Positions 27,935 to 40,208 are shown, counted from the first letter of the stretch. The stretch is 59,424 nt of DNA from a virus (IMGVR_UViG_3300048772_000090:1-59424); one strand, 5' to 3'. The notes: generated by a model not told the origin, from the sequence alone. Numbers and translations: made by a program.

Positions 27935-29326
27935 TTACTGCTGTGCTTCGTGCTGCTGGATAAAGTCGAGTGTTGCTTCTGAAAAACCATCCACATGTAG
28001 CCACTCACCATAGCCGATGCCATTACGGTCTGCACCGACGTTGATGAGGTAGTTATTCTTACCGAACGGCTTTGCGCTCGATGGCTTATTCACCAAGTCG
28101 CAGTCCTGCTCGTCCGTAAAGACCACGATACGGTCGGCGTCTGATTCCTTCTCCCGCAGCACGTCAATCACTTGCTTGAGGAAGATTCCGCCGCCGCCAA
28201 TTGTGTGACACGTCTTCTCATATGAGAGCAGGTCGCGGAGTCCGAATCCCCTGCGCGGAGGAATCAGCATCGTAGCGTGCTTGCGAGCGCAGTCGTCTCC
28301 AGCGGTTGCGTAGATTACTACGTCTTCGCAGACCTCACGAAGCAGCATTGCCAAAGCCGCAGCCGCACTCAGCCTATCCAGTTCGGACTTGCCAGAGATT
28401 TGACCGTGCATCGACCCAGAGCAATCCACAACTAGCACGGTCTTACCTGCCAGTTTAGGTTGACCCTCAAGGCAACGGAACATCGCTTGCTCCAACTCAG
28501 GCTCCAACTTTGGCGCATACTTCGCCGCCGTAATGAACCGGAAAGGAAGAACGCGCTCCGTCCTCATATTCGTCAAAGCCCCGCGAATAACCGACTGATC
28601 CACCTTCGCTTCCTGCATATTCCGCAGGTTGCGAAGCAACGCCAGAGCACCAAGCTGATTCTCTTCGATGAGACGAGTAAACGTCGCCTTCTTATCCTTA
28701 CCAGCCGACAGATTCGACTCCCAAGTGTCAGGAGCCGTCAACTTGTTCTCGGCCAGTTCCTTCCAGAGTGCCGTCTGCTCATCGTTCTGAGGCTTTGCAT
28801 GGACGAGGAAGAGCACGTCGCGCATGGCTACTTGGCCATCCCGGTTCGCGTACTTGCTCAAGGAATATCTGTCGAACTTCTGGAATGCCGCCGCTAGACC
28901 CTTCTTCATCTGAGCCGTCAAGGGCTGCTTTCCGTCCTTCCAGTGCATCGCAATAAGCTCGGCCATCTCGTCAGGACGCTGCACACAGGAAGCGATTGCA
29001 CCTGATACGACAGCGCGAGCCTCTTCCGTCTTGGCGCGGATCAGTGCAACGATAAGCCAGAGCGGGGCATGGCGCAGCTTGAACTTCGTCCGCGCCTCAT
29101 ACGCGATGTTACCGACGATCCCCGCACCATCCTTCAACTTCAGGACAGCAGCAACTTCATCGTGGATGCGCTTGGCAATCTCGACACCCTCTTCGTAGAA
29201 AGTGCCCTCAAAGAGCATCGTCGCCATCACAGAGCGGCGAAGCTGTTGAACAGCGTTAATGCGAACGGCTACCGCACCCTCATGGGTGTGGATAGGCGGA
29301 GTCTTTACGGCGACGTTGGTACGCAT
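27935..29326 (-). CDS. Ro60/Rsr-like TROVE domain protein with vWA domain
   Basis: THEGAVA, FEGTFYE, TWES, ALLRNLRNM, LPFRF, vWA MIDAS VVDCSGSM and VFTDEQ. Confidence 0.92.
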   Translation of the reverse strand: MRTNVAVKTPPIHTHEGAVAVRINAVQQLRRSVMATMLFEGTFYEEGVEIAKRIHDEVAAVLKLKDGAGIVGNIAYEARTKFKLRHAPLWLIVALIRAKTEEARAVVSGAIASCVQRPDEMAELIAMHWKDGKQPLTAQMKKGLAAAFQKFDRYSLSKYANRDGQVAMRDVLFLVHAKPQNDEQTALWKELAENKLTAPDTWESNLSAGKDKKATFTRLIEENQLGALALLRNLRNMQEAKVDQSVIRGALTNMRTERVLPFRFITAAKYAPKLEPELEQAMFRCLEGQPKLAGKTVLVVDCSGSMHGQISGKSELDRLSAAAALAMLLREVCEDVVIYATAGDDCARKHATMLIPPRRGFGLRDLLSYEKTCHTIGGGGIFLKQVIDVLREKESDADRIVVFTDEQDCDLVNKPSSAKPFGKNNYLINVGADRNGIGYGEWLHVDGFSEATLDFIQQHEAQQ

Positions 29327-29346
29327 GGTTTACTCTCCCTTTTGCT

Positions 29347-29380
29347 GCAAGATAAAGGGCTACCCCGGAGGATAGCCCTT
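29347..29380 (-). terminator. hairpin plus weak U-tract between the Y RNAs and the TROVE gene
   Basis: AAGGGCTA-loop-TAGCCCTT followed by TATCTT on the minus strand. Confidence 0.5.
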
Positions 29381-29388
29381 AGTATTGA

Positions 29389-29526
29389 TCGGTCGGAACA
29401 TACGCCTACGGTAATTTTACGTGCTCTACCACTGAGCTACGCTTCGCGGTGACCCGAAAAGCGGAAGGATTCGAACCTTCGTCCTCGTCCTTAGCATGGA
29501 AGTAACCGTAAACTTCACCAGACCGA
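29389..29526 (-). ncRNA. YrlA-like Y RNA 1 (tRNA-mimic domain)
   Basis: Terminal stem TCGGTC/GACCGA; T-arm GAAGG-TTCGAAT-CCTTC precedes D-arm TAGCTCAGTGGTAGAGC (permuted order typical of YrlA); next to the Ro60 gene. Confidence 0.85.
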
Positions 29527-29534
29527 ACATCTAA

Positions 29535-29666
29535 GAGCCGAGAACATTCGTAACAATCTCCCTTGCGGGAATCTTGCCTTACCAATTAGGCGAGTAGTTA
29601 GATTTCTCTAACCCCATTGGAATTGAACCAATAATAGAGATGTAATTGTTACTACCACTACGGCTC
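29535..29666 (-). ncRNA. YrlA-like Y RNA 2
   Basis: Terminal stem GAGCCG/CGGCTC; T-arm TTGG-TTCAATT-CCAA then D-arm GCCTAATTGGTAAGGC; shares TAC.TC and TGTTC motifs with RNA 1. Confidence 0.75.
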
Positions 29667-29683
29667 GTACTTATAAAACTTTT

Positions 29684-29763
29684 GTCGAAGGAACAAGCGA
29701 ACTCGGAAGGTGCCCGAAGGCTTTTCTGTTCAAGAGAAGTATCCGAACTCTTCACCATTCGAC
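29684..29763 (-). ncRNA. short Y-RNA-like RNA lacking the tRNA domain
   Basis: GTCGAA/TTCGAC stem with the same TGGTGAAG, TACTTC and TGTTCC motifs as RNA 1. Confidence 0.65.
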
Positions 29764-29784
29764 AAAACTTGTACTTCTAAACTT

Positions 29785-29910
29785 CGCGAAGCAGACGGGA
29801 GTCGAAACCCGTAGGAGTCATTAAAAGTGGCCCCTGTCACCATCCAAGAGAGACTTTCGAAAGTCCGTCTCGTCAACCTGCAATCTGGGTATCAGCCAGA
29901 AGGCTTCGCG
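29785..29910 (-). ncRNA. unknown tRNA-like structured RNA
   Basis: 8-bp terminal stem CGCGAAGC/GCTTCGCG, 3' T-arm-like ACGGG-TTTCGACT-CCCGT, three internal hairpins. Confidence 0.5.
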
Positions 29911-29952
29911 CTATTCCCCGCCGTCGCGGGAAACTCAAACTCAACATTCACA

Positions 29953-29981
29953 ACTCTAAGCGCAGTTCTAAAACTTGTCAA
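29953..29981 (-). promoter_or_regulatory. sigma70-like promoter of the Y RNA-Ro60 unit (TTGACA-17-TAGAGT)
   Basis: Perfect -35 with 17-nt spacer. Confidence 0.65.
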
Positions 29982-30015
29982 GCAAAATCTGCGCTTTATT
30001 TCCACAAATCTAAAA

Positions 30016-30090
30016 TGGAGCGGGAGAAGGGAATTGAACCCTCTGCGCCTTGCTTGGAAGGCAAGCACTCTACCGATGAGCTACTCCCGC
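30016..30090 (-). tRNA. tRNA-Gly(TCC)
   Basis: Cloverleaf; CTTGC-CTTCCAA-GCAAG; CCA. Confidence 0.92.
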
Positions 30091-30351
30091 CTATTTCTTC
30101 ACAACGTCCTTCCAGAACTCCACAACACTCTCAATCCCTGTATCGTCCATCAACTCGAAATCTACTTCCCCGATGGACTCTATCGAAAGGTCGCAGCATG
30201 TATCCACTTTGGCCTCCAGAGCCTTGCAGCGCATCACCTCTAGCTTCTCTTGGCACTGCATGACGGCGGATACCATATCGTCGGCACGGAAGACCATATC
30301 CGGGACAGGAGTACACTCACAACCTGATAACGTAGCAATGTAAACTGGCAT
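30091..30351 (-). CDS. hypothetical protein within tRNA operon 1
   Basis: GGGAGG RBS, start MPVYIATL, 86 aa. Confidence 0.6.
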   Translation of the reverse strand: MPVYIATLSGCECTPVPDMVFRADDMVSAVMQCQEKLEVMRCKALEAKVDTCCDLSIESIGEVDFELMDDTGIESVVEFWKDVVKK

Positions 30352-30387
30352 GTTTGAATCCTCCCGAACAATAGTAACACTGAAACA

Positions 30388-30465
30388 TGGTAGCGGATAC
30401 TGGACTTGAACCAGTCGCCTCAGCCTTATCAAGACTGCGCTCTTCTCAGGATGAGCTAATCCGCC
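30388..30465 (-). tRNA. tRNA-Ile(GAT)
   Basis: CAGTC-TTGATAA-GGCTG; CCA. Confidence 0.9.
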
Positions 30466-30477
30466 ACGTGAAATGGA

Positions 30478-30553
30478 TGGTACCCAGTAGAGGAGTCGAA
30501 CCTCTCTAGCCAGTTTGTAGGACTGGAGCCTGAAACCGATAGGCTAACCGGGC
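30478..30553 (-). tRNA. tRNA-Val(TAC), C33
   Basis: CCAGT-CCTACAA-ACTGG; CCA. Confidence 0.8.
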
Positions 30554-30558
30554 GAATA

Positions 30559-30634
30559 TGGCGCGAACGGGGAGATTCGAACTCCTGTCTCACTGATCGA
30601 CAATCAGTTGCTTTGGCCACTAAGCTACGTTCGC
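30559..30634 (-). tRNA. tRNA-Asp(GTC)
   Basis: ACTGA-TTGTCGA-TCAGT; G73; CCA. Confidence 0.88.
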
Positions 30635-30706
30635 AAAACTGTTAGGCCGTTCAGTCGCATCCAGAAGGGATATTCATTGATCCCTGCGCTTACTAGACCC
30701 GTAAAA

Positions 30707-30783
30707 TGGTGGGCGATGGCAGATTCGAACTGCCGACTGAAATTTAGGAAATTTCTGTGATTATCCAATTTCACCAAACGCCC
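30707..30783 (-). tRNA. tRNA-Arg(CCT)
   Basis: GAAAT-TTCCTAA-ATTTC; CCA. Confidence 0.88.
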
Positions 30784-30792
30784 AAAACTTGA

Positions 30793-30868
30793 TGGTCGAA
30801 CCGCTGGGATTCAGACCCAGAACTGTGTCTTCGGAGGGCACTGTGATATTCAGTTTCACCACGGCTCG
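30793..30868 (-). tRNA. tRNA-Arg(CCG)
   Basis: GTGCC-CTCCGAA-GACAC; atypical T-loop TCTGAAT; CCA. Confidence 0.8.
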
Positions 30869-30871
30869 AAA

Positions 30872-30945
30872 TGGTGCCGCAAAGGATACTCGAAATCCTG
30901 TTGGATGCGTGAGAAGCATCTATCCTACCCTTGAATGATTGCGGC
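30872..30945 (-). tRNA. tRNA-Glu(CTC)
   Basis: GATGC-TTCTCAC-GCATC; CCA. Confidence 0.85.
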
Positions 30946-30946
30946 A

Positions 30947-31024
30947 TGGTCCGAAGGACGAGACTCTAACTCGCTAGGAACGGCTTGAAGGGCCGCTTGC
31001 TCGATACACTTTGCATTCCTTCGG
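30947..31024 (-). tRNA. tRNA-Glu(TTC), C33, atypical D/T loops
   Basis: GCGGC-CCTTCAA-GCCGT; acceptor CCGAAGG/CCTTCGG; CCA. Confidence 0.65.
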
Positions 31025-31032
31025 ATAAAAGA

Positions 31033-31107
31033 TGGAGCATCCACCCCGAATCGAACGGGGATCACAACCTTAGAAGGGAAGTCTCTATCCGCTTGAGCTA
31101 TGGACGC
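31033..31107 (-). tRNA. tRNA-Arg(TCT)
   Basis: Loop CTTCTAA with a weak anticodon stem; CCA. Confidence 0.75.
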
Positions 31108-31108
31108 A

Positions 31109-31187
31109 TGGTCCCCGTGGCATGGATTTGAACCTGCGGCCTCTACCTTAAAGGGGTAGCACTCTAACCGGACTGAGTTACACGGGG
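31109..31187 (-). tRNA. tRNA-Lys(TTT), C33
   Basis: CTACC-CCTTTAA-GGTAG; CCA. Confidence 0.8.
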
Positions 31188-31193
31188 ATAAAC

Positions 31194-31268
31194 TGGTGGC
31201 AGCGCTGGGACTTTAACCCAGATCGAACTCCTTAAGAGGGAGGCATGTTGAATTAACACCACGCTGCC
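31194..31268 (-). tRNA. tRNA-Lys(CTT)
   Basis: CCTCC-CTCTTAA-GGAGT; T-loop TTAAAGT; CCA. Confidence 0.8.
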
Positions 31269-31270
31269 AT

Positions 31271-31364
31271 TGGTACCGGAAGAGGGAATCGAACCCGTCT
31301 AGCATCGGTTATCGACCGACTATATGAGGAGTATAAGGCCCCGCTGTGTCCTACACTTTCCGGC
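31271..31364 (-). tRNA. atypical tRNA-like RNA, probably Ile(TAT), with a long extra arm
   Basis: Acceptor GCCGGAA/TTCCGGT-ACCA and TTCGATT T-loop; tiny D-arm; loop CTTATAC; extra arm GTCGG-TCGATAA-CCGAT. Confidence 0.5.
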
Positions 31365-31367
31365 GAA

Positions 31368-31461
31368 TCTTAGGTGGTCGCTATAGCCTCCCCGCCTCAG
31401 TTTTGGGGCGATGTTGCTATTACAGAGCAGTCCTATCCCGTCGAATAGGAAGCGCCCAAGA
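31368..31461 (-). ncRNA. unknown structured RNA between tRNAs
   Basis: Terminal stem TCTTGGGCG/CACCTAAGA with internal hairpins. Confidence 0.4.
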
Positions 31462-31539
31462 TGGTGCCAGTGGACAGGATTGAACTGTCGGCCTCGTCGT
31501 TATGGGTGACGCGCTCTAAGCCTACTGAGCTACACTGGC
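31462..31539 (-). tRNA. tRNA-Met/Ile2(CAT), C33
   Basis: CGTCA-CCCATAA-CGACG; CCA. Confidence 0.82.
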
Positions 31540-31540
31540 A

Positions 31541-31615
31541 TGGCAGGGGAGGACGGAACCGAACCGTCAATTTCGGTTTTGGAGACCGAGAGTTTTCCTG
31601 TTAGCCTACTCCCCT
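31541..31615 (-). tRNA. tRNA-Trp(CCA)
   Basis: TCGGT-CTCCAAA-ACCGA; A1-U72, G73; CCA. Confidence 0.88.
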
Positions 31616-31625
31616 AAAAATTCAT

Positions 31626-31642
31626 TTCAATTGTCAACGAGC
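31626..31642 (-). promoter_or_regulatory. boxA-like antitermination element, operon 1
   Basis: GCTCGTTGACAATTGAA directly after the attenuator; no -10 at promoter spacing. Confidence 0.5.
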
Positions 31643-31699
31643 AAAAGTAAACCCCAGCCTGAGCCGGGGTCTGATAAAGCGGTGTTGCCGACAGACCCC
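31643..31699 (-). terminator. attenuator 1: antiterminator GGGGTCTG/CAGACCCC versus terminator ACCCCGGC-TCAG-GCTGGGGT-TTACTTTT
   Basis: Two mutually exclusive stems sharing ACCCC, starting right after the leader stop codon. Confidence 0.8.
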
Positions 31700-31771
31700 T
31701 CAAACGCGCATATCCCACCCGTCCCGCTTAATGCGGACTATGGTTTCGACGTTTTTGGTTGATCTGGTCAT
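31700..31771 (-). CDS. leader peptide 1 MTRSTKNVETIVRIKRDGWDMRV
   Basis: AGGA RBS; 23 codons plus TGA abutting the antiterminator; codons match downstream tRNAs. Confidence 0.75.
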   Translation of the reverse strand: MTRSTKNVETIVRIKRDGWDMRV

Positions 31772-31841
31772 CGTTTAATCCTAAATTGTGCTCTCATTAC
31801 CCACCGAGCAGGTGCATCCATGCTTTTACTGCACTTGAGAA

Positions 31842-31871
31842 ACTATATCACACGTCAAACTGAAAGCGCAA
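31842..31871 (-). promoter_or_regulatory. promoter of tRNA operon 1 (TTGCGC-18-TGnTATAGT)
   Basis: Extended -10; same 18-nt spacing as the early promoters. Confidence 0.55.
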
Positions 31872-31882
31872 GGAATATTTTA

Positions 31883-31961
31883 TGGTGCGCCCGGAGGGAC
31901 TTGAACCCCCTGCCTTTTGGTTCGTAGCCAAACGCTCTGAATCCAGATGAGCTACGGGCGC
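31883..31961 (-). tRNA. tRNA-Arg(ACG)
   Basis: TTTGG-CTACGAA-CCAAA; CCA. Confidence 0.92.
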
Positions 31962-31971
31962 AAACTTTTAT

Positions 31972-32061
31972 GAGGCGGCTTCATGCTACCCGGTCTAGCC
32001 GGACACGTGACCCGCTCTGACTGGCCCGGAGTTTCCTCCGCGTCTAGGCAGCGACCGCCTC
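31972..32061 (-). ncRNA. unknown multibranch structured RNA
   Basis: Terminal stem GAGGCGG/CCGCCTC; internal CGGAG-GAAA-CTCCG and CCGG-CTAGA-CCGG. Confidence 0.45.
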
Positions 32062-32077
32062 TGTAGTCACTCAAGCA

Positions 32078-32186
32078 TGGTCGGGTTTGCGAGTCTGCCA
32101 GTCTCGCACTAGAGCGCCCCATGCGCCCCGTGCTTTGATCCGTCCGTCCCGAAGGCTCTGGATCAGGCCGTTTACACTAGCACCCG
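32078..32186 (-). tRNA. atypical tRNA-Pro(TGG)-like RNA with a hairpin inserted in the D-loop
   Basis: C1-G72/A73 Pro-type end CCCGACCA; GGGCG-CATGGGG-CGCTC; TGATCC...GGATCA insert; 9-nt T-loop. Confidence 0.5.
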
Positions 32187-32194
32187 GTAAATGA

Positions 32195-32271
32195 TGGTCG
32201 GAGAGGTGAGATTCGAACTCACGTCATCTCGCTCCCAGGGCGAGTGCCTGAAGCCTCTAGGCTACTCTCCG
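32195..32271 (-). tRNA. tRNA-Pro(TGG), C33
   Basis: CTCGC-CCTGGGA-GCGAG; C1-G72; CCA. Confidence 0.88.
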
Positions 32272-32276
32272 ACTAT

Positions 32277-32352
32277 TGGTGCCAACTCAGCGAATCGAAC
32301 GCTGTTCCATTCCTCTTCAGGGAATTGTAATCACCAGACCTACGCAGTTGGC
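32277..32352 (-). tRNA. tRNA-Phe(GAA)
   Basis: ATTCC-CTGAAGA-GGAAT; CCA. Confidence 0.82.
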
Positions 32353-32360
32353 AAATCATT

Positions 32361-32435
32361 TGGTGGAGACGGAGGGAATCAAACCCTCAACTTCGGAGTG
32401 CAAAACCGATGTGTTCTCATTAGCACCACGTCCCC
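32361..32435 (-). tRNA. tRNA-Ala(TGC)
   Basis: G3:U70; loop TTTGCAC; CCA. Confidence 0.88.
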
Positions 32436-32439
32436 AAAC

Positions 32440-32607
32440 TTATTTACCGAAAATCTTTTCCATCAATTCCTTCATCCACGGATACTCTTCCGGCTTGCAG
32501 AGGATCATAGGGTACTCATACTTATACGGACCTAGAGTCTCCGCATACGCTTTCTGAAGCATCTCTAGTGTGACCTGACCCGTATTCTCCTTCGCGTCGT
32601 AGTACAT
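32440..32607 (-). CDS. 55-aa hypothetical protein (MYYDAKENTG...KIFGK)
   Basis: AGGAGG RBS; fills the gap between tRNA-His and tRNA-Ala; below the ORF-track cutoff. Confidence 0.6.
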   Translation of the reverse strand: MYYDAKENTGQVTLEMLQKAYAETLGPYKYEYPMILCKPEEYPWMKELMEKIFGK

Positions 32608-32627
32608 TGCTTCCTCCTAACAAACTT

Positions 32628-32703
32628 TGGGGCGGGATGTGGTACTCGAAACCACGTAGACTGATGCCACAGATCAGCGCCTTACCTCTCGGCCAATCCC
32701 ACC
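32628..32703 (-). tRNA. tRNA-His(GTG)
   Basis: G-1:C73; CTGAT-CTGTGGC-ATCAG; CCA. Confidence 0.88.
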
Positions 32704-32710
32704 ACATCTT

Positions 32711-32792
32711 TGGAGCACGGAGAGGGATTCGAACCCCCGGTGTTGGATGCCTGCTTACAAAACAGGTGCAGTCGCCGCTGTGCCATCCGTGC
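32711..32792 (-). tRNA. tRNA-Thr(TGT), enlarged variable loop
   Basis: CCTGT-TTTGTAA-GCAGG; CCA. Confidence 0.85.
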
Positions 32793-32902
32793 AAATCTTA
32801 ACCGGAATCTCTCTTCCGCAGTCACGCCACTAGACTCGCTGCTCGGACTTTCCGAGTGTGCTATACCCCGGACGGGGTTACGTCGGGCAGGTGTCGCCCA
32901 TT

Positions 32903-32978
32903 TGGAGCCGTCTGCGAGAATTGAACTCGCTGCCTCCGAATTACCAATCCGGTGCTCTTCCATACGAGCTACGACGGC
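32903..32978 (-). tRNA. tRNA-Thr(GGT)
   Basis: CCGGA-TTGGTAA-TTCGG; CCA. Confidence 0.88.
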
Positions 32979-33521
32979 CTATCCTACGGTTGCGTACTTC
33001 GTGTCTCCAGCGTTGTCAAAGTACAGATAAGGACGCCACTTTTCATCCTCAGCGCCCATCGACTTCAAGATGAAACGTGATGTATGTATCGAGGCCGCAC
33101 GAGGCTTGTGGATCAACTTCATCCCCGCTTCCTCTGGTGTCCTGTCCGCCTTACGACGATTGTCCTCGACACAGCAGGCTACAAGGTTACTCCATGTGTC
33201 CTTTCCTCCTTGCGCCCGAGGTACAATGTGATCCAGCGTCAACTTAGACGGATGGAAAACAATGCCACAGTACATGCAAGTGTTCCGATCCCGCAAGAAG
33301 ATGTTCTTCCTGCTCAAAATCTGGACGCGAACAGGAATGTACCGAAACTCCTTCAAGCGAATTACCGAAGGGAACATGATTCCGGGATAAATCTCTTGTC
33401 CTGTGTGCTCTTGAATAACAGCCCGATCCTTGCAAACCAATGTGAGAGCACGTCGGCAGGAACGAATGCTGATCGGCTCAAATGAGCTATTTAAAACTAG
33501 CGTTGCTTTGTTCATGTTCAT
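32979..33521 (-). CDS. HNH endonuclease
   Basis: TLVLNSSFEP, RDRNTCMYCG, LTLDHIVPRAQGG, WSNLVACC, KADRTPEEAGM. Confidence 0.9.
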   Translation of the reverse strand: MNMNKATLVLNSSFEPISIRSCRRALTLVCKDRAVIQEHTGQEIYPGIMFPSVIRLKEFRYIPVRVQILSRKNIFLRDRNTCMYCGIVFHPSKLTLDHIVPRAQGGKDTWSNLVACCVEDNRRKADRTPEEAGMKLIHKPRAASIHTSRFILKSMGAEDEKWRPYLYFDNAGDTKYATVG

Positions 33522-33565
33522 AACGCACTCTCCTTTCTGTTTACTTTACCACTAACTGCGCATCC

Positions 33566-33639
33566 AGCCTACGTTATTTGGGTGACGGATTAAATGTCCG
33601 CCTGTACGTCCCGTCGCATCTCGCGGTACAGCGTAGGCT
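33566..33639 (-). ncRNA. unknown structured RNA
   Basis: Terminal stem AGCCTACG/CGTAGGCT enclosing two hairpins. Confidence 0.4.
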
Positions 33640-33647
33640 AGAAACTT

Positions 33648-33724
33648 TGGAGCAGGCGTCCCGAGTCGAACGGGAATCGTCTTTCTTACGAGGAAAGTGC
33701 ATAAGCCACTTCTGCCACGCCTGC
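33648..33724 (-). tRNA. tRNA-Thr(CGT)
   Basis: CTTTC-CTCGTAA-GAAAG; CCA. Confidence 0.88.
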
Positions 33725-33736
33725 GTAAATCTAAGA

Positions 33737-33811
33737 TGGAGCGGGGTATCGGGATTGAACCGATGATCTTCGGTCTGGCAGACCAATGCTTTGCCACTCA
33801 GCTAACCCCGC
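33737..33811 (-). tRNA. tRNA-Gly(GCC)
   Basis: TTGGT-CTGCCAG-ACCGA; U73; CCA. Confidence 0.9.
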
Positions 33812-33816
33812 AAAAA

Positions 33817-33890
33817 TGGTTCGGTCGCTCCGAGTCGGACGGAGATAGAGAGTGTCAAAGGCTCTCGAATTGCCATTATTCGACGACCGA
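33817..33890 (-). tRNA. tRNA-Gln(TTG)
   Basis: Loop CTTTGAC; U1-A72; CCA. Confidence 0.8.
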
Positions 33891-33896
33891 TCAAAC

Positions 33897-33971
33897 TGGT
33901 TCCGGGTGGAGGATTCTGACCCCCATCTTTAGGTTCAGAGCCTAAAATCCTCACATTTGGACGAACCCGGA
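33897..33971 (-). tRNA. tRNA-Gln(CTG)
   Basis: TTAGG-CTCTGAA-CCTAA; U1-A72; CCA. Confidence 0.82.
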
Positions 33972-33982
33972 TCAATCCTTGC

Positions 33983-34000
33983 TATTCAGTTGTCAAACTC
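33983..34000 (-). promoter_or_regulatory. boxA-like antitermination element, operon 2
   Basis: GAGTTTGACAACTGAATA resembles rrn-spacer TTTGAAAACTGAATA; no -10 at promoter spacing. Confidence 0.5.
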
Positions 34001-34120
34001 CCGATCCCACTAGGGGCGGTGAAACGAAACTTTGCGACGGTGGCTATAACCTGCCCGCTGCCACCGCCGAAGTCCACGTCTGTAGTTAGCGGCCTACCTA
34101 CTCCGGGTCGTATCAAACTT

Positions 34121-34197
34121 TGGCTCATCAGGTCGGCCTCGGACCGACATCCCCGAAATTAACAGTTTCGTGCTCTGCCTACTTGAGCTACCGATGA
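34121..34197 (-). tRNA. tRNA-Asn(GTT)
   Basis: CGAAA-CTGTTAA-TTTCG; G73; CCA. Confidence 0.85.
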
Positions 34198-34207
34198 ACA
34201 TTACTGC

Positions 34208-34296
34208 AAAACTTTGGGGTCACCAGATTTTCTCCGGTGACCCCATCTACTGCTCGCTGTTTTATAAATGTCAGTCGAGAGAAGGACGGCCACCGG
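34208..34296 (-). terminator. attenuator 2: antiterminator CCGGTGGCC/GGTCACCGG versus hairpin GGGGTCACCGGA-GAAAA-TCTGGTGACCCC-AAAGTTTT
   Basis: Mutually exclusive stems; the U-tract is imperfect. Confidence 0.7.
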
Positions 34297-34369
34297 GCGC
34301 ATGATTACCGCGCGGCTGTGCTTGCGTTGCCGCTGGGGTAAAGGTTCGCGTTGTGGCTGCGTTCTTCAT
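34271..34369 (-). CDS. leader peptide 2 MKNAATTRTFTPAATQAQPRGNHAPGGRPSLD
   Basis: ATG a few nt after the predicted TSS; codons 3-29 all encode amino acids of the downstream tRNA set. Confidence 0.8.
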   Translation of the reverse strand: MKNAATTRTFTPAATQAQPRGNHAPGGRPSLD

Positions 34370-34381
34370 GTCTCTTTTGTC

Positions 34382-34410
34382 AATGTACCCGCGTTGAGAT
34401 TATTTGTCAA
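34382..34410 (-). promoter_or_regulatory. promoter of tRNA operon 2 (TTGACA-17-TACATT)
   Basis: Near-consensus sigma70. Confidence 0.75.
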
Positions 34411-34417
34411 CTGCTAT

Positions 34418-35078
34418 TTACCAGATTCCGCGAACATAGTCCTTGTAACGCCAACTCTTGCCAGTAATGTGGTCGTTTACGTCCCCGTCCTTCACGCGGA
34501 TGGTACGGCGTTTGTCGCCACGCTGTCCACTTCCAACCTGCTTCTTCCTATCGGCTGAAATGCTCCCGTGCCTATGTTCCTTATCGGCAGCGAACAGTCT
34601 TGCGGTCAGGATCGCTAGAGCAATATCCTTGTTCCGCTTCTGTGATCGCTCGTCTTCGCAGCGAACCGTTAGGCCCGTAGGAATATGCTTGAGGATGACG
34701 CAGGTTTCGAGTTTGTTGGCGTTCTGTCCGCCCTTGCCTCCTGAACGGGTAGTGGAGTATTCCAGATCGTTAGGGGATACAGAAAATTCGTATGGCTGTG
34801 GTTCTGGGAAGGTAGCGACCGTAACCGTAGAGGTTTGGACTCGTCCACTACGCTCTGTAGGCGGGATTCTCTGCCATCTGTGGCCGCCTGACTCGTTAGC
34901 AAATATCTTCTCAACTCCCTTTCCGGTAACTCGGAAAACAACAATTCCCGGTCTTTCCTCAGTCAATTCGAGGTCAAAGCCCCCTCCGCTCCGCAAGTTT
35001 TGTGTAGATGCGGAATTGGTCGATCACAAGTAATTTAGCATCCATTCCTCCCTCAGCAGCCCTAATCTCAATTATCAT
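34418..35078 (-). CDS. short class-I peptide chain release factor (lacks domain 1), expressed through a +1 frameshift; join(35078..34977, 34975..34418), about 219 aa
   Basis: AGGAG RBS; MIIEIRAAEGG (RF domain 2 start) in frame 0; ESGGHRWQRIPPTE...RVQTS, GGKGGQNANK, RSQKRN and RGDKRRT in frame +1; junction CGGAGG-GGG-CTT-TGA-C. Confidence 0.88.
34973..34988 (-). promoter_or_regulatory. prfB-type programmed +1 frameshift signal
   Basis: Internal SD GGAGG, 3-nt spacer, CTT TGA C; same layout as the RF2 signal AGGGGG-TAT-CTT-TGA-C. Confidence 0.88.
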
Positions 35079-35228
35079 TTCATTTCTCCTATTCGCGTCA
35101 GGATAAAACCCGAATGGCCCCATTTCTGAGGCCACTCGCGGCTCGTGCAAGGACATTATGTACGCAGGCACAATTAGGAGCGGTACGCTCCCTGGTTGAT
35201 GCGGCCTTTCGACCGCGAGATAAGCATA

Positions 35229-35579
35229 CTATTCACATGGGGTTAGGTCAAGGTAATAGTTCTTACCCGGAACAAACGTGTCGCAGACATCGGGATTATC
35301 AACAAGGAACGTCATGGTTCCGCTTGGCGTTGCGGCAGCGAAACTAACATCCTCTGGATTACTTGTGTCGTACTGCGCGGCTAACCGCACGTTCTGAGCA
35401 AACTTTCCAGTAGAGATGTACTTGACTTTCTTACCATTATCCGTGTACTCAGTTCCAACCAGAGCAGCATAGTCCTCCGGCGTTACTGAGTCCTCGAAAA
35501 CTCGCTTTGAAACGGCGTTGTCAGTCAGCTCTACGCTAACCACACGGAACTTGCAGCGGGTACGAATCGCTTCTGGCAT
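35229..35579 (-). CDS. hypothetical protein
   Basis: AGGAG RBS; RCKFRV...FAAATPSG...PGKNYYLDLTP. Confidence 0.75.
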   Translation of the reverse strand: MPEAIRTRCKFRVVSVELTDNAVSKRVFEDSVTPEDYAALVGTEYTDNGKKVKYISTGKFAQNVRLAAQYDTSNPEDVSFAAATPSGTMTFLVDNPDVCDTFVPGKNYYLDLTPCE

Positions 35580-35675
35580 AAACTCTCCTAAATTTGGTTG
35601 GGAAGCACCGCTATGCTTGCGGCATCACTGAGCCACGCCAAGGTTATCCTGCGGCTCACATGGACAGCATAACAT

Positions 35676-35714
35676 AAAACAGCAATGGCTCCCACTTAAG
35701 TTGAGAGCCACTGC
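35676..35714 (-). terminator. intrinsic terminator closing the ncRNA cluster
   Basis: GCAGTGGCTCTCA-ACTTAAG-TGGGAGCCATTGC-TGTTTT. Confidence 0.7.
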
Positions 35715-35742
35715 CGGTCGTGCCTTCTATTTATAGGAAATC

Positions 35743-36789
35743 TTTGCAGCGGGTCGGATTCCTATACCGGCATGGCGGTCTGCACTAGGTGATGCCTCTT
35801 TCGAGGGCTTATGCTGGCTCTCGCTGCCGCGTGGGTTTCTCACCCATCCGCCGAACTGCTAATCCCTTCCGGGACTCGGACGACCTAGCCAAGTTAGCGG
35901 GTTCCTCCCCGCCGCCACTGCAAACTTTGCCCGTTCGTATTGAACGGAGCCGAAGTCACCAACAATCGAGTGCTGGACTCCTACTCCGATCTCTGCGCCA
36001 CCCCATCTTGGGTACTCGCGTCAGGATTGCAGATCGTTTCGCTTGGAATTCTTTGCAGCGTTCTGCTCTCTCGTTACTCCTCGCGGCGTCTAGAAGCTAC
36101 CGATTCTGGAAGACCGAACACCTCAAAAGAGTGGAGTCTTGGGGTCTAAAGGAGTGTCCTACCACTCTTCCGCTGCAAACCTTTGAGGCGCGGCTCCGAT
36201 TCTGGCTAACCAGTCACCGTTTTATCCTTTGCGGGAGAGACCTGTCAGTTCCGCCTCAAACTTTTCCCGTCCCAAACCGATAAGAGAAGGTGGCCCCTCG
36301 GACGGCCACTAACCGCCCATTCTCTCCGGCTCGACTTAGCAGACCGATAAGGCGTTCTGAACAGCCTCCGGCCCGCGACAGGAAACTTTATAATCCCCTA
36401 AAATGTGGGGCCGTTCGGCCTTGCAGATACTAGGCTTCGACCGATCTTACAGCTTATTATGGACGATCAATCGGCTTGGCGTCCAGCTATTACCTCTCCA
36501 CCGTTCTCTTCCTACTAGGCCCCTTCGTCGGGGGTATTCTAAAATCCAGCGGCGTTGCGTCATTGTCGCTGCGAAAGTATGCCTACGTTCGCGTTCTCGG
36601 ATGGCCCCGGATTTCTCCGTCTGACGCTATCCCTGATGTTTGCTTGCCGCTGAAACTCAAACTATGCTCGTCTTTCCGAGCCGCCAAGGGACGTTACCGT
36701 TACCCTACGCGTCTTTCCGTGTCTCGTCACTCCCGTTACTGAGGACGTTTTGAATGGCCGTCTATGAACGTGAGTCGAAGTCTCCCAGC
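35743..36789 (-). ncRNA. tandem cluster of at least six unknown structured RNAs
   Basis: No RBS-supported ORF; consecutive units closed by 7-11-bp terminal stems, several separated by the AAAGTTT-type spacer also seen after tRNA CCA ends. Confidence 0.6.
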
Positions 36790-36797
36790 CAGATCAA

Positions 36798-36867
36798 TGG
36801 TTGCGCAGGGAAGAGTTGAACTTCCGTCCTTGGCCTTATGAGAGCTAGGCATACCGCTATCCGCGCA
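36798..36867 (-). tRNA. 70-nt tRNA(CAT)-like RNA with a reduced D-arm
   Basis: Acceptor TGCGCGG/CTGCGCA-ACCA, loop CTCATAA, T-arm GGAAG-TTCAACT-CTTCC. Confidence 0.55.
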
Positions 36868-36878
36868 GGACAAATATC

Positions 36879-37460
36879 TCATCCTGCGCCAACGATGTCA
36901 AGTGGTATTTTATAGAATATGGTGCGTTGAGCAGGAGTCGAACCTGCGGTGTTTGCTCGTAGAGTCACAGATTTACAGTCTGCTGCCTTCGCCACTGGGC
37001 CACCAACGCATAACTTTTCATATTTCTTTGGAGAACGACGTTTTTGCCGACACTCCCTGCAATCTGTTTCAAGTCCTCTACGCTTTGACCTATCCTTCGT
37101 AAAATCTCCAACTGGAAGCCAATCCTGATGCCCATAACACCATGCCATTCCGGGAGGATCAATGCGTCTCAAATGGGCGTTGGCGTCCATTGCTCGGAGA
37201 TCACGTTTGGTTTTCTCTAAATGGCAACCGTGACAACGTGCTTTGCATTTCTCCAATTCTTCCAATCTTTTAGCATCACCCCAACTCCATACAGTGTGGC
37301 TCACTTTTGTCGAAGGATCAACATGATCTAGTTCAAGATTGTCCCAAGTCCCGCAATCCACACATGGACCGTTCTCTGCAAACCACTTTCTCCTACGTTC
37401 TTTGACGACTCGCTCATACCACGCCTTTTGTGCTGCCTTCCACTTCACCATATCTCTCAT
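36879..37460 (-). CDS. HNH endonuclease; the reading frame runs through tRNA-Tyr
   Basis: CVDCG..NLELDHVDP...CHGCH plus a second CYGH/CREC zinc finger. Confidence 0.8.
   Translation of the reverse strand: MRDMVKWKAAQKAWYERVVKERRRKWFAENGPCVDCGTWDNLELDHVDPSTKVSHTVWSWGDAKRLEELEKCKARCHGCHLEKTKRDLRAMDANAHLRRIDPPGMAWCYGHQDWLPVGDFTKDRSKRRGLETDCRECRQKRRSPKKYEKLCVGGPVAKAADCKSVTLRANTAGSTPAQRTIFYKIPLDIVGAG
36920..37009 (-). tRNA. tRNA-Tyr(GTA)
   Basis: GCAGA-CTGTAAA-TCTGT; long variable region; CCA. Confidence 0.9.
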
Positions 37461-37466
37461 GGCGGA

Positions 37467-37495
37467 AGTATACAGCTATAACGGCGGAAATACAA
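37467..37495 (-). promoter_or_regulatory. promoter for a leaderless HNH transcript (TTGTAT-17-TATACT, ATG 6 nt downstream)
   Basis: Spacing places +1 on the A of the ATG at 37460. Confidence 0.55.
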
Positions 37496-37511
37496 CAACT
37501 AAACACATTAA

Positions 37512-37604
37512 TGGAGGAAGAAGCGAGATTTGAACTCGCGGTGCCGGTCACCCGGACACTCCCGTTTTCAAAACGGGCGCTTTAGACCACTCAGCCATCC
37601 TTCC
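37512..37604 (-). tRNA. tRNA-Ser(TGA)
   Basis: CCCGT-TTTGAAA-ACGGG; long variable arm; CCA. Confidence 0.9.
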
Positions 37605-37608
37605 AAAC

Positions 37609-37694
37609 TGGCGGTAGGGAAGCGATTTAAACGCTTAATACCTTTCGGTATGCTCGGTTTCGAATCGAGGTGTCCCATCAATGACAGCCCTACC
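37609..37694 (-). tRNA. tRNA-Ser(CGA)
   Basis: Loop TTCGAAA; long variable arm; atypical D/T loops; CCA. Confidence 0.75.
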
Positions 37695-37698
37695 AAAC

Positions 37699-37788
37699 TG
37701 GCAGTGAGGATGGGATTCCAACCCACGATACCCTTACAGGTATTCTTGCTTTCCAAGCAAGCGCCTTCGAGCACTCGGCCACCTCACT
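37699..37788 (-). tRNA. tRNA-Ser(GGA)
   Basis: CTTGC-TTGGAAA-GCAAG; long variable arm; CCA. Confidence 0.85.
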
Positions 37789-37793
37789 GTAAA

Positions 37794-37884
37794 TGGCGAT
37801 GAGACTGAGATTCGAACTCAGGACACCCTTTTGAGGTGCTTCGTCTTAGCAGGACGATGCCTTAAGCCACTCGGCCATCTCACC
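37794..37884 (-). tRNA. tRNA-Ser(GCT)
   Basis: TCGTC-CTGCTAA-GACGA; long variable arm; CCA. Confidence 0.92.
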
Positions 37885-37893
37885 GTAAAACTT

Positions 37894-37970
37894 TGGTGCG
37901 CGACCGGGAAATCGAATCCCGAAACACCTCTGTTTGAAAAAGGCGGCTTTGCCTATTTGCCTAGTCGCGC
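37894..37970 (-). tRNA. tRNA-Leu(CAA), short variable loop
   Basis: CCTTT-TTCAAAC-AGAGG; A73; CCA. Confidence 0.82.
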
Positions 37971-37979
37971 ATAACCTTT

Positions 37980-38056
37980 TGGTGCCAGTGGGGGAAATCG
38001 AATCCCCAAACATATCGCCCTAAACGATACCGCTTTGCCTATTTGCGTACACTGGC
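37980..38056 (-). tRNA. tRNA-Leu(TAG), short variable loop
   Basis: TATCG-TTTAGGG-CGATA; CCA. Confidence 0.82.
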
Positions 38057-38064
38057 ATAAAACT

Positions 38065-38143
38065 TGGTGCCGGGAGCGGAAATCGAATCCGCACTGTCAC
38101 AGCCTTCTTAGGACTGCCGCTTTGCCATTTTGCGTACCCCGGC
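38065..38143 (-). tRNA. tRNA-Leu(AAG), A34, short variable loop
   Basis: CAGTC-CTAAGAA-GGCTG; CCA. Confidence 0.8.
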
Positions 38144-38149
38144 TAAACT

Positions 38150-38227
38150 TGGTGCGCTAGGGCGAATTCGAATCGCCAAACTCTTCCGTCTGAGGAAAGA
38201 AGGTATACCAATTCCCATCACTAGCGC
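38150..38227 (-). tRNA. tRNA-Leu(CAG), short variable loop
   Basis: CTTTC-CTCAGAC-GGAAG; CCA. Confidence 0.82.
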
Positions 38228-38230
38228 ATT

Positions 38231-38245
38231 TAATTGTCAAAGAAC
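38231..38245 (-). promoter_or_regulatory. boxA-like antitermination element, operon 3
   Basis: GTTCTTTGACAATTA, close to boxA GCTCTTTAACAA. Confidence 0.6.
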
Positions 38246-38322
38246 TGGAGAGCGGTGTCAGATTTCAACTGACGATTAGCAGTTTTGCAGACTGCTGCGT
38301 TTGAGCACTTCGCCAACCGCTC
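38246..38322 (-). tRNA. tRNA-Cys(GCA)
   Basis: GCAGT-CTGCAAA-ACTGC; U73; CCA. Confidence 0.88.
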
Positions 38323-38323
38323 A

Positions 38324-38403
38324 TGGTGTGGGCATCGGGATTCGAACCCGAAGAATAGACAATTTTTAGGACTGTCCGGCTATACCTGTTCGCCTATACC
38401 CAC
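38324..38403 (-). tRNA. tRNA-Leu(TAA), C33, short variable region
   Basis: ACAGT-CCTAAAA-ATTGT; CCA. Confidence 0.78.
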
Positions 38404-38503
38404 AAACGAAAACCCCTCCGTTTTGAGTGGAGGGGTTCGTCACAACCTTGGGAGGATTACACCTTATATCCCTCTCCAACGCGCAAGCGAACCCCCGCTC
38501 AAA
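38404..38503 (-). terminator. attenuator 3: antiterminator TTTGAG-CG-GGGGTTCG/CGAACCCC-TCCA-CTCAAA versus terminator AACCCCTCC-loop-GGAGGGGTT-TTCGTTT
   Basis: Mutually exclusive stems; the terminator ends directly at the 5' end of tRNA-Leu. Confidence 0.82.
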
Positions 38504-38547
38504 CTGAGCGATGACAGGCAATACGAGTTGGATAAGAGGTTCTTCAT
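38464..38547 (-). CDS. leader peptide 3 MKNLLSNSYCLSSLSLSGGSLARWRGI
   Basis: 13 of codons 4-17 are Leu/Ser/Tyr/Cys, the amino acids of the downstream tRNAs. Confidence 0.82.
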   Translation of the reverse strand: MKNLLSNSYCLSSLSLSGGSLARWRGI

Positions 38548-38563
38548 ATCAGATCGCAAAGTT

Positions 38564-38592
38564 AGATTACATTCCTGCCGAGCGGTTGTCAA
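38564..38592 (-). promoter_or_regulatory. promoter of tRNA operon 3 (TTGACA-17-TAATCT)
   Basis: Near-consensus sigma70. Confidence 0.72.
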
Positions 38593-38599
38593 GCGGTTT

Positions 38600-39016
38600 T
38601 TACGGAGTTGGCGTTCCGAAAGTGCTTGCGATCTCTGTCGGCACCTCAACGGCAGCAACCACTGTCACTGTGTCCGTGCCGCTCAGACCATACACTGAGT
38701 CTCCGTAGGTGTCCGTTACGGTTCCCGGTGCTACTGCTGTCCATGTTGCTGTGCCGTCGCCATTATCAACGACGCTTGCGATGGTTGGATCGCTGCTTAC
38801 TACGGTGATGTCTGCGCCAACAACAGGAACGTTTCCTGCGGCGTTCGACTCTGTTACCGTCTCGATGACGGTCTGGCCTACCGTAAGGGTGATTGGCATG
38901 GTAACTCCTTCAAAATGACTGTGGATTTGGGTGGGACGGTGGGAACGAAGGATTTCAAGCACTTCTTTTAGTTCGTGCCTGATTTCCTCCAAAAGATGGA
39001 TTTCATGGTGAGTCAT
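38600..39016 (-). CDS. Ig-like (Big-2-like) domain protein; an internal start at MPITLTVG is possible
   Basis: Thr/Val-rich, VSSDPTIASV...TAVAPGTVT. Confidence 0.6.
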   Translation of the reverse strand: MTHHEIHLLEEIRHELKEVLEILRSHRPTQIHSHFEGVTMPITLTVGQTVIETVTESNAAGNVPVVGADITVVSSDPTIASVVDNGDGTATWTAVAPGTVTDTYGDSVYGLSGTDTVTVVAAVEVPTEIASTFGTPTP

Positions 39017-39253
39017 AGGCGTATCATACTCCTGTTCCGGTGGATTTTTCGGTTAATTTCTGCTGTTTTTCCCATGGCCACTGGCCAAAATCGACCACAA
39101 AGAACGGAGGCCTATCGTGGAAGTATGGTGACGGTTTGTCGGGATGCTCAATTGCGAAATAGCCGGTTGCTACCTCAACCCGATCCCCAACCTTGTGCAG
39201 CCAAGAACCGTTAGGGTACTCGGCGGAAGGACGCATAAAAGTATCTTTAATCT

Positions 39254-39490
39254 CTACCAAGGCATCCATTTTCTCTCCTCTCCGAAGAATTTCTCTATTC
39301 CTAGATACTCCCTGTACTCTTGGATCGAAGAATGACCGCGCTGATTATTACATTTTTTGCAGGCATCTACGAACTTGTCTCCACCGAAAAACTTAGGGAT
39401 GAAATGATCTACTGTCCGCTGTCTTGGATGGTCGCGTTTGGTAAGCAAGAGCTTACAGCCGCAGAACCAGCACTGATTCCATTGAGCCAT
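39254..39490 (-). CDS. small HNH endonuclease
   Basis: CWFCG...TVDHFIPK..GG...ACKKCNNQRG. Confidence 0.8.
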   Translation of the reverse strand: MAQWNQCWFCGCKLLLTKRDHPRQRTVDHFIPKFFGGDKFVDACKKCNNQRGHSSIQEYREYLGIEKFFGEERKWMPW

Positions 39491-40208
39491 ATATCCTCCT
39501 TTCTCCTCGTCTCAGGCCACCACTTGTCATTAAACCCTTCCATAATTTCCTCTCCTCTATCGAGTCCAAGATGTCTTGCATTCCTGACCGCTCGCCTGAT
39601 TTCGGAAGGATCGCACTGGTGGATACTAAACTCGTACAAATCTTCCGCTTGCCGTATTCGGTTGTGAACGAGATATACGGTTTCACATGCCACGCAACGA
39701 TACCCGAAGAAGAAGCATTGAACATCCCCGTCCGCCATCTTTACCTGCGTCATCAAAAGCCCGTGGATGAGTGCAGGAGACTGATACATCAAAAGTTCCA
39801 TTTGGGTTGGGGCTACGACCTGCGACGTATCAACAATATTAGTTCCTACGCCTACAGCCCCTCCAAGCACGTTGGCGTAGCGGTTGTTGAAGACTTGTAT
39901 GGTCGGCGGCAGGAATTCAGGTATTTTTCTCACGCGATAACCTCAAAAATCCAGTATTGCTCGTCCTCGCTTGGAGTGACACAAAATCTATGATGGTAGC
40001 CCCTCCCAGGAAAAGGACACATCTTAAAACGGAAGTTCGGGGTGCAGACGACATACCACGGCCCTGTTCCGAGTCTCCCGCAAATGGTAAAAGAATCATG
40101 CGCTTCCTTGAGAATTCCCCTCGCGTAATCCGCCCATGTCAAAGATTGGCCGAGCAACCGTCGAGCAACCGTTATGTCTGGAGAAACGAGCATAGCGCAA
40201 CTTTAGCA

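Follow-up and report, generated by a model that had tools for sequence, protein, structure and literature searches.

The window, as the whole stretch of DNA analysed here is called, is a virus contig of 59,424 nucleotides (nt) (IMGVR_UViG_3300048772_000090:1-59424) from a record estimated to be 63% complete. Its minus strand carries a release-factor gene (35078-34418) that, on direct reading, is split over two frames. Frame 0 ends ...GCG GAG CGG AGG GGG CTT TGA C; when CTTT is read as one step, the two frames give an unbroken protein of 219 amino acids (aa), here P0001, that shows no gap against its relatives. An initial annotation of the locus had proposed such a +1-joined reading, and both translation and the gap-free fit to relatives confirm it. 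The gene has the following parts:

35086-35090, minus strand: Shine-Dalgarno-like (SD-like) AGGAG, 7 nt 5' of the start codon, read from the sequence.
34974-35078, minus strand: frame 0, with ATG (35078-35076), 34 sense codons (MIIEIRAAEGG...AERRGL) and the gate stop TGA.
34983-34987, minus strand: internal SD-like GGAGG (Arg-Arg codons CGG AGG), followed by the 3-nt spacer GGG (34982-34980) and then the slippery codon.
34973-34979, minus strand: shift site CTT TGA C, with the slippery Leu codon at 34979-34977, the stop at 34976-34974 and the next base, C, at 34973.
34418-34975, minus strand: +1 frame, 185 codons (DLELTEERPG...RGIW) and TAA (34420-34418), encoding the rest of domain 2/4 and domain 3.
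34856-34864, minus strand: PPT tripeptide, residues 72-74, placed by alignment where RF1 has PxT in its stop-codon recognition loop.
34724-34732, minus strand: GGQ catalytic motif, residues 116-118, from translation and Pfam.

The junction has the form of the frameshift site in prfB, the RF2 gene: GGAGG GGG CTT TGA C at 34987-34973 supplies an SD-like element, three bases, CUU, a stop and a C. The pattern GGAGGNNNCTTTGAC (12 specified bases) matches the window once, where 0.03 matches are expected; a match turns up in 3 of 100 shuffled sequences. The heptamer CTTTGAC itself is in excess, with 16 sites in the window against 8.65 +/- 2.83 expected and none of 100 shuffles reaching 16. Only the release-factor site has GGAGG at a three-base spacing; there, 84 codons are open in the CTT frame and 185 in the +1 frame, both with release-factor homology. 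None of the remaining 15 sites in the window has GGAGG with the three-base spacer or joins the halves of a split gene, which leaves the heptamer excess unexplained. Four of them have a long +1 frame that is simply the normal frame of a long open reading frame (ORF), with few open codons upstream, and the one at 57759-57765 is the normal start of a 743-aa ORF.

Profile comparison places P0001 nearest to RF1. The Pfam PCRF domain covers residues 2-87 (positions 103-194 of a 194-position model; 73.6 bits against a gathering score of 24) and the RF-1 domain residues 97-203 (95.9 bits against 35). NCBIfam models rank RF1 (208 bits) above RF2 (125), PrfH (80) and ArfB (33), and every score lies under its curated cut-off: 206.8 bits against 423.25 for TIGR00019 and 207.8 against 400 for NF001859 (RF1), 125.3 against 370 for TIGR00020 (RF2), 80.3 against 166.65 for TIGR03072 (PrfH) and 33.3 against 100 for NF006718 (ArfB). 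The ArfB match spans residues 98-130 only, in a protein that has a PCRF domain. The closest solved structure is Thermotoga maritima RF1 (E 1e-50), followed by other RF1s, RF2 (about 1e-26) and PrfH (6e-14). In the recognition loop, HRWQRIPPTERSGRVQTST aligns to HRVQRVPVTESGGRIHTST of T. maritima RF1, and the longer alignment of QRIPPTERSGRVQTST to QRVPVTESGGRIHTST keeps the RF1 spacing. PPT, not the SPF of RF2, lies gap-free against the PVT of T. maritima RF1 in a loop of RF1 length, and the Gln (QR-PxT), the Thr of PPT and the following Thr (xTS) are all retained.

The protein is short at both ends. Residue 2 falls at position 107 of the RF1 model, of which positions 107-317 of 347 are spanned, so domain 1 is absent; against T. 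maritima RF1 the alignment begins at residue 89. About 100 N-terminal residues are thus missing, as are the last ~30 residues with the C-terminal helix, and the alignment to canonical RF1 places two short deletions in domain 2. In RF1 and RF2, domain 1 makes the RF3/L11-stalk contact. It is reported to be dispensable for release in vitro in a passage of PMC1586002 that cites Mora et al. 2003. The fold was assessed on a structure model of a natural in-frame relative 77% identical to P0001 (predicted local distance difference test, pLDDT, 86), which has domains 2/4 and 3 and superposes on ribosome-bound RF1 with a template-modelling (TM) score of 0.84, compared with 0.73-0.81 for RF2 and 0.63 for PrfH. 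That model has a strand at residues 2-9 and a helix at 11-32, so frame 0 would encode the first strand and helix of domain 2, with the shift at the helix end. The window bears out the features that the initial annotation had listed, namely a cassette like that of prfB, a PxT loop of RF1 type, GGQ and the lack of domain 1. The annotation had also set the shift site apart from the prfB position, and indeed the site lies near RF1 model position 140, whereas prfB of two Myxococcota genomes has its cassette at codons 23 and 30.

A gene in two frames, of which gene callers annotate only the downstream 192-aa ORF, might be taken for a pseudogene or an assembly error, but this explanation is considered refuted. 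Contigs from two other peat-metagenome studies, X2 record 10 (34878-35090) and X4 record 18 (34856-35121), cross the shift site with no differences and no indel, and identity among independent assemblies indicates that the split is not an error. Moreover, hundreds of loci share the shift site, and both halves are conserved as protein: seven of the 41 invariant columns in a 24-sequence alignment fall within the 34 frame-0 residues (E4, E9, G10, G11, K15, L17 and Y25). Internal initiation at TTG 34996 was rejected as an alternative, as it would lose the first strand and helix that frame 0 conserves. Other contigs of X2 (depth 41.3) and X4 (depth 29.9) join 34369 to 35087 through 61 other bases, which points to related strains lacking exactly the release-factor gene, from its ribosome-binding site (RBS) to about 50 nt past its stop:

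34370-35086, minus strand: segment swapped for 61 other bases in related strains, from metagenome contigs.

Conservation of the gate was followed in 165 sources, namely the window plus 85 loci from phages or viral contigs and 79 from bacterial genome assemblies. The relatives comprise the best 80 of 384 in IMG/VR, 79 loci of 130 bacterial-genome relatives and, as a further set, the best 80 of more than 314 metagenome relatives. Locus scans used alignment queries; single-protein queries gave 2 loci each, and a nucleotide search with the gene region against 50,697 phage records gave no match. The loci called bacterial are mostly contigs of metagenome-assembled genomes (MAGs), some of which could be mis-binned phage. 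A +1 shift at the same codon, 27 codons past the AEGG motif, is found in 135 of the 165 sources; 26 are in frame, two end at contig ends (L115, L116) and two match none of the patterns (L138, L156). It recurs in 7 of 8 additional viral loci and 45 of 80 metagenome loci, with some contigs shared between collections. The in-frame members have neither GGAGG nor CTT-T at the homologous point. The description of a phage release factor in the initial annotation proves too narrow for the family, as 71 of 79 bacterial-assembly loci carry the same frameshift.

The slippery codon is the most constant part of the cassette. Among 129 distinct frameshifted sequences, CTT is found in all, as is the T that follows it. 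GGAGG with a 3-nt spacer is present in 80. Of the two Arg codons in the SD-like element, CGG is kept in 99 sequences and AGG in 86. The stop is mostly followed by C (102 sequences), otherwise by G (24), A (2) or T (1). The stop itself is TGA in 91, TAG in 35 and TAA in 3. Transcriptional slippage was tried as an explanation and rejected: the window has a run of five Gs, but relatives read GGGGT, GGTCT and similar, and with CTT plus a stop as the conserved element, ribosomal rather than polymerase slippage fits.

The gene callers' output carries a trace of the same cassette. They split or truncate genes of this family, and 59 among the best 120 database proteins are +1-frame fragments whose first residues, GGVFS, GGVFE or GGVFD, are what the cassette yields when read in that frame. 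For the database relatives closest to the window, the sequence expected from a TAG gate, VFS (29), outnumbers those expected from TGA gates, VFE and VFD (19), which, judged from protein alone, suggests that TAG gates are commoner than TGA gates there.

One rival explanation is a constitutive frameshift of no regulatory role: a one-base insertion in a shifty context (RRGF-E/D, CGG AGG GGN TTT GAR) that has been tolerated since. Basal relatives read GGT TTT GAG, where a single inserted C gives GGT CTT TGA G, and the identity of the gate stop is nearly unconstrained, as this explanation would have it. However, losing one base would put the gene back in frame, yet all 129 sequences, from phages and bacteria alike and down to about 45% identity, have kept CTT and a stop. 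Two thirds of them retain AGG, a rare Arg codon, high-GC Myxococcota included, T after the stop is avoided, and the cassette recurs at a second site, with stop-codon gates at further sites, in the same family. A purely constitutive shift is thus quite unlikely.

The second site is found in a basal clade whose members are in frame at codon 34, also lack domain 1 and have a more RF1-like C-terminus. In these, a GGAGG-N3-CTT-stop cassette sits in a leader of 6 to 8 codons, 9 codons 5' of the AEGG motif, as in two loci:

L020, 1970-1995: leader cassette ATG ACT AGG GGG TGT CTT TGA C.
L077, 1965-1995: leader cassette ...AGG AGG TCT CTT TGA C.

The leader form accounts for 11 of 80 metagenome loci (TGA 7, TAG 3, TAA 1); carriers besides L020 and L077 include L200-L207, L213 and L221. 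On this sequence evidence the leader cassette is a second site for the putative device within one protein family.

Other members have an in-frame stop in place of the shift (13 of 80 metagenome loci and 15 of 165 sources). The stop is mostly TGA, and once TAG, at or beside the frameshift codon (L017, L024, L026, L214-L222, L257-L263). Some of these TGA codons stand directly 3' of a Gly where RF1 has Gly-Trp, as aligned by eye, and a low-GC clade has two conserved in-frame TGA positions. Because the 4.6-kb flanks are too rich in tRNAs or GC to judge the genetic code, two 20-kb regions were taken from each of five phage records, including those of L017, L024 and L026. Under the standard code these regions have a coding density of 0.79-0.96, codes 4 and 15 bring no real gain, and TGA ends many long ORFs in the tested in-frame-stop phage records. 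The in-frame stops therefore appear gene-specific rather than a product of genome-wide recoding.

The family was placed by a FastTree analysis of 152 distinct members with RF1 and RF2 of three Myxococcota genomes and one PrfH. The initial annotation had called for a phylogeny against these three factors; in it the short-factor family is recovered as a single clade with support 99, RF2 separates with support 100, and at the base RF1, PrfH (on a long branch) and the short-factor family take no settled order. By this tree the family stands as a clade of its own, on RF1's side and apart from RF2. GGQ is present in all 146 members scored, and the third residue of the tripeptide is T in 94, N in 37, S in 5, G in 3 and H in 1. 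The remaining six (L001, L017, L037, L046, L054, L080) have a shortened recognition loop with no PxT and keep GGQ; their stop-codon recognition may be changed or lost.

The identity of the gate stop changes readily on the same tree. At least 24 changes are needed to explain the TAG label, of which well-supported branches force at least 11, and the near-identical proteins L124 and L137 (branch lengths 0.033 and 0.006) differ in having TGA and TAG, respectively. No link is seen between the type of gate stop and either the tripeptide (PPT, PPN, others) or the His/Gln position of the loop. The initial annotation had tied the gate specifically to UGA, and the claim is not supported in that form: as judged from the sequences, a UGA-specific gate logic is not general across the family.

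These exchanges bear on a second rival, in which the factor has relaxed or omnipotent specificity, reads its own gate stop, UGA included, and so regulates itself family-wide by true prfB-like feedback. As this would predict, the gate stop changes with no change in the decoding loop: PPT accompanies 52 of 88 TGA forms and 22 of 33 TAG forms, PPN 26 of 88 and 7 of 33, and L124 and L137 again illustrate the point. In addition, Asn, Ser, Gly or His replaces the Thr of PxT in 46 of 146 members. To our knowledge, this Thr is universal in RF1. Conversely, P0001 has a loop of RF1 length and spacing with its Gln and both Thr residues in place, and reading of UGA is not known to us for any natural factor of RF1 type. 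The rarity of TAA (3 of 129) is expected if efficient termination is disfavoured, with no need for self-recognition. Self-regulation of this kind is therefore rather unlikely.

Taken together, these observations probably describe an auxiliary class-I release factor of RF1 type, reduced to domains 2, 3 and 4 and placed by a programmed +1 frameshift under a gate that senses termination; this joint reading is favoured with moderate confidence. The cassette, its conservation, the place of the family in the tree and the domain architecture are established here; from them we infer that frameshifting occurs, that its efficiency depends on release-factor supply and which stops the product reads. Since the anatomy of the cassette is that of prfB, the same mechanism is the natural reading. 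CUU would occupy the P site and a poorly read stop the A site, while the SD-like GGAGG three bases upstream would pair with 16S rRNA and favour re-pairing. When termination is slow, the peptidyl-tRNA-Leu would move from CUU to UUU and the +1 frame would be translated; when it is fast, only a 34-residue fragment would be made. The amount of factor would then rise as the termination capacity of the cell falls. With UGA as the gate stop of the window, the input would be host RF2 activity. The output, by homology, would be a factor reading UAA and UAG, and the product could add RF3-independent termination capacity. The recurrence of different gates in the family, combined with the avoidance of T after the stop, suggests that dependence on failed termination has been selected, and the ease with which UGA and UAG replace each other speaks against sensing of any single factor.

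Several points weigh against this interpretation. A UGA gate combined with an RF1-type loop makes a circuit that is not autoregulatory in the prfB sense. Because the gate stop switches between UGA and UAG among close relatives, a specific role as an RF2 sensor is weakly supported; the gate may respond to a broader signal or to none at all. Within the family the tripeptide differs at its third residue, which leaves the specificity for UAA and UAG presumptive. Contigs from RNA libraries (X18, X19) cover parts of 34394-34903, and X18 also 35062-35200, missing the shift site; their source is a relative with about 96% identity, DNA may be present in the library, and they carry no information on slippage or expression at the junction. 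Finally, the tree is from FastTree only, with outgroups limited to RF1 and RF2 of three genomes and one PrfH.

A bolder reading sees in the short factors a distinct third lineage of class-I release factors that would combine sensor and effector of termination capacity, with interchangeable gates, independence from RF3 and possibly relaxed or omnipotent stop recognition. Synthesis would then require a failure of termination, through a +1 shift at either of two sites or through stops in frame. This is a speculative and unlikely proposal, though not a negligible one. If it were true, phages and Myxococcota could go on terminating translation once canonical RF1 and RF2 run short, are trapped or come under attack, and the presence of the prfB cassette at non-homologous sites would represent convergent evolution of one regulatory device.

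The family is distributed over phages and bacteria. The best phage-database matches are huge-phage records, and many IMG/VR loci lie on contigs of 100-480 kb. At least one tRNA is found within 2 kb in 45 of 80 IMG/VR loci, and at least three in 33 of 80; a tRNA is nearby in only 8 of 79 bacterial loci. The bacterial copies are mostly in Myxococcota MAGs, and also in the complete 16-Mb chromosome of Minicystis rosea DSM 24000 and in contigs of 6-7 Mb; where scanned, they are flanked by cellular genes of diverse kinds, such as those for a sigma factor, a TetR regulator and a dehydrogenase. In bacterial genomes the short factor is present in addition to RF1. The three genomes searched have 5-6 RF-1-domain genes each, RF1 and RF2 included; in Minicystis rosea the five are RF1, RF2, the short frameshifted factor, a PrfH-like gene (L176, chromosome ~15,128,000-15,129,400) and an ArfB-sized gene. 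In two of these genomes prfB has its own cassette in domain 1, at codon 23 in Minicystis and codon 30 in a Kofleriaceae MAG, so the site in the short factor is a second, non-homologous one in the same genome.

In the window the release-factor gene is embedded in a tRNA array, with the following features around it:

30016-38403, minus strand: array of 34 tRNA genes found by ARAGORN, on one strand throughout.
35111-35138, minus strand: terminator-like hairpin of 12 pairs with a T-rich tail, directly 5' of the RBS; a consensus match only, with predicted function.
34410-34382: promoter-like site directly past the stop of the gene; a consensus match only.

Of the array tRNAs, 24 of 34 are also found at the Rfam gathering score, and the short factor and the 34 tRNAs could be parts of a phage translation-support module. 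One of them, a tRNA-Leu with anticodon AAG (38065-38143, minus strand), would decode the gate's slippery CUU; once shifted onto UUU, it would form a G-U pair at the first position. No suppressor tRNA is found among the tRNA genes of the window. Two HNH endonuclease genes, 32979-33521 and 36879-37460 (both minus strand), lie inside the array on the same strand as the tRNAs. Elsewhere the record has phage-type replication genes for a DnaB-like helicase, a replication initiator, a ParB-like protein and an SbcC-like protein. The upstream 116-aa ORF (35229-35579) has no Pfam match. Adjoining the array, 27935-29326 (minus strand) encodes a 463-aa protein whose TROVE domain and weak matches to a Ro60-type vWA give it the look of a Ro60-like factor for RNA quality control; in 27000-40000 no family resembling Y RNA is found at the Rfam gathering score.

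RNA-related neighbours such as the tRNA array and the Ro60/TROVE protein are among the grounds for a further rival, in which the factor resembles PrfH and rescues damaged or stalled ribosomes rather than acting at ordinary stop codons. Available text of PMC1586002 describes PrfH as likewise lacking domain 1, and the PxT loop is lost in six family members. Most members, however, keep the RF1 decoding loop, and both the PrfH profile score, under half its cut-off, and the TM score of 0.63 against 0.84 for RF1 argue for a different affinity. There is no RtcB match anywhere in the 59-kb record, itself 63% complete, and Minicystis has a separate PrfH-like gene beside the short factor. A PrfH-like rescue role is accordingly judged very unlikely, and the gated RF1-type factor is retained as the preferred reading.

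If that reading is correct, a short RF1-type factor is gated by a +1 frameshift, a device that, in the portions of the literature available, has so far been described only for RF2. The RF1-type family is large, with hundreds of loci in phages and Myxococcota, and carries the cassette elsewhere in the gene, with TGA, TAG or TAA as its stop. It offers a natural experiment on why release-factor genes attract this device, whether one factor or termination in general is sensed, and what role a factor has without domain 1. No description of the gates of the short-factor family was found in the literature passages covered; supplementary tables of the phage papers may list such genes.

Among known systems, prfB is the nearest parallel. 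The RF2 frameshift is textbook autoregulatory recoding. Relevant sections of PMC3711429 and PMC12421855 describe how prfB senses RF2 through SD-CTT-TGA-C. The short factor has the same cassette architecture and slippery codon, a class-I release-factor host gene and presumably the same slow-termination logic, and the prfB genes of two Myxococcota genomes that also encode it read AGGGGG CAT CTT TGA C and CGGAGG TTG CTT TGA C. It differs in being of RF1 type (PxT, not SPF), in lacking domain 1 and in placing its site at the end of the first domain-2 helix rather than at codon 23-30 in domain 1. The gate stop differs as well: TAG, the stop specific to RF1, is found in 35 of 129 short-factor gates and, according to the accessible text of a 2025 survey of more than 12,000 genomes (PMC12421855), in none of 8,164 prfB motifs. 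The same text reports programmed frameshifting for prfB and not prfA, and 34 prfA 'pseudogenes' without a conserved motif.

Canonical RF1 supplies the best-scoring family and structures, and shares the PxT loop, GGQ and the domain 2-3-4 fold. The short factor, by comparison, scores about half the curated cut-offs, is truncated at both ends and forms a separate clade. An RF1 counterpart of the frameshift is called unknown in a passage of the review PMC5009743, and a reviewer's comment printed in PMC1586002 states that the RF1 family has no frameshift. PrfH resembles the short factor as a sporadically distributed class-I release-factor paralogue without domain 1. Parts of PMC1586002 and PMC6514570 give it an altered recognition loop and a link to RtcB, and the available part of PMC6514570 mentions neither phages nor frameshifts. 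In contrast, the short factor keeps the RF1 loop, has no RtcB in the window, and gives much weaker hidden Markov model and fold matches to PrfH.

Release factors are also known from phages. Large phages are reported to encode RF1 and RF2 (PMC7162821, in part), and excerpts of bioRxiv 10.1101/2021.08.26.457843 and PMC10746230 report RF1 in TGA-recoded phages; the word 'frameshift' is absent from the main texts of PMC7162821 and the bioRxiv paper. The window phage differs from the recoded phages in its use of the standard code with all three stops, as its 79 ORFs (a crude set) end in TGA (31), TAA (26) and TAG (22). A last parallel is a giant-virus release-factor gene that, according to one sentence in the review PMC5009743, is expressed via readthrough and frameshifting. 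On that sentence's account, both are viral class-I factors that need recoding for their expression, the giant virus differing in that it infects eukaryotes.

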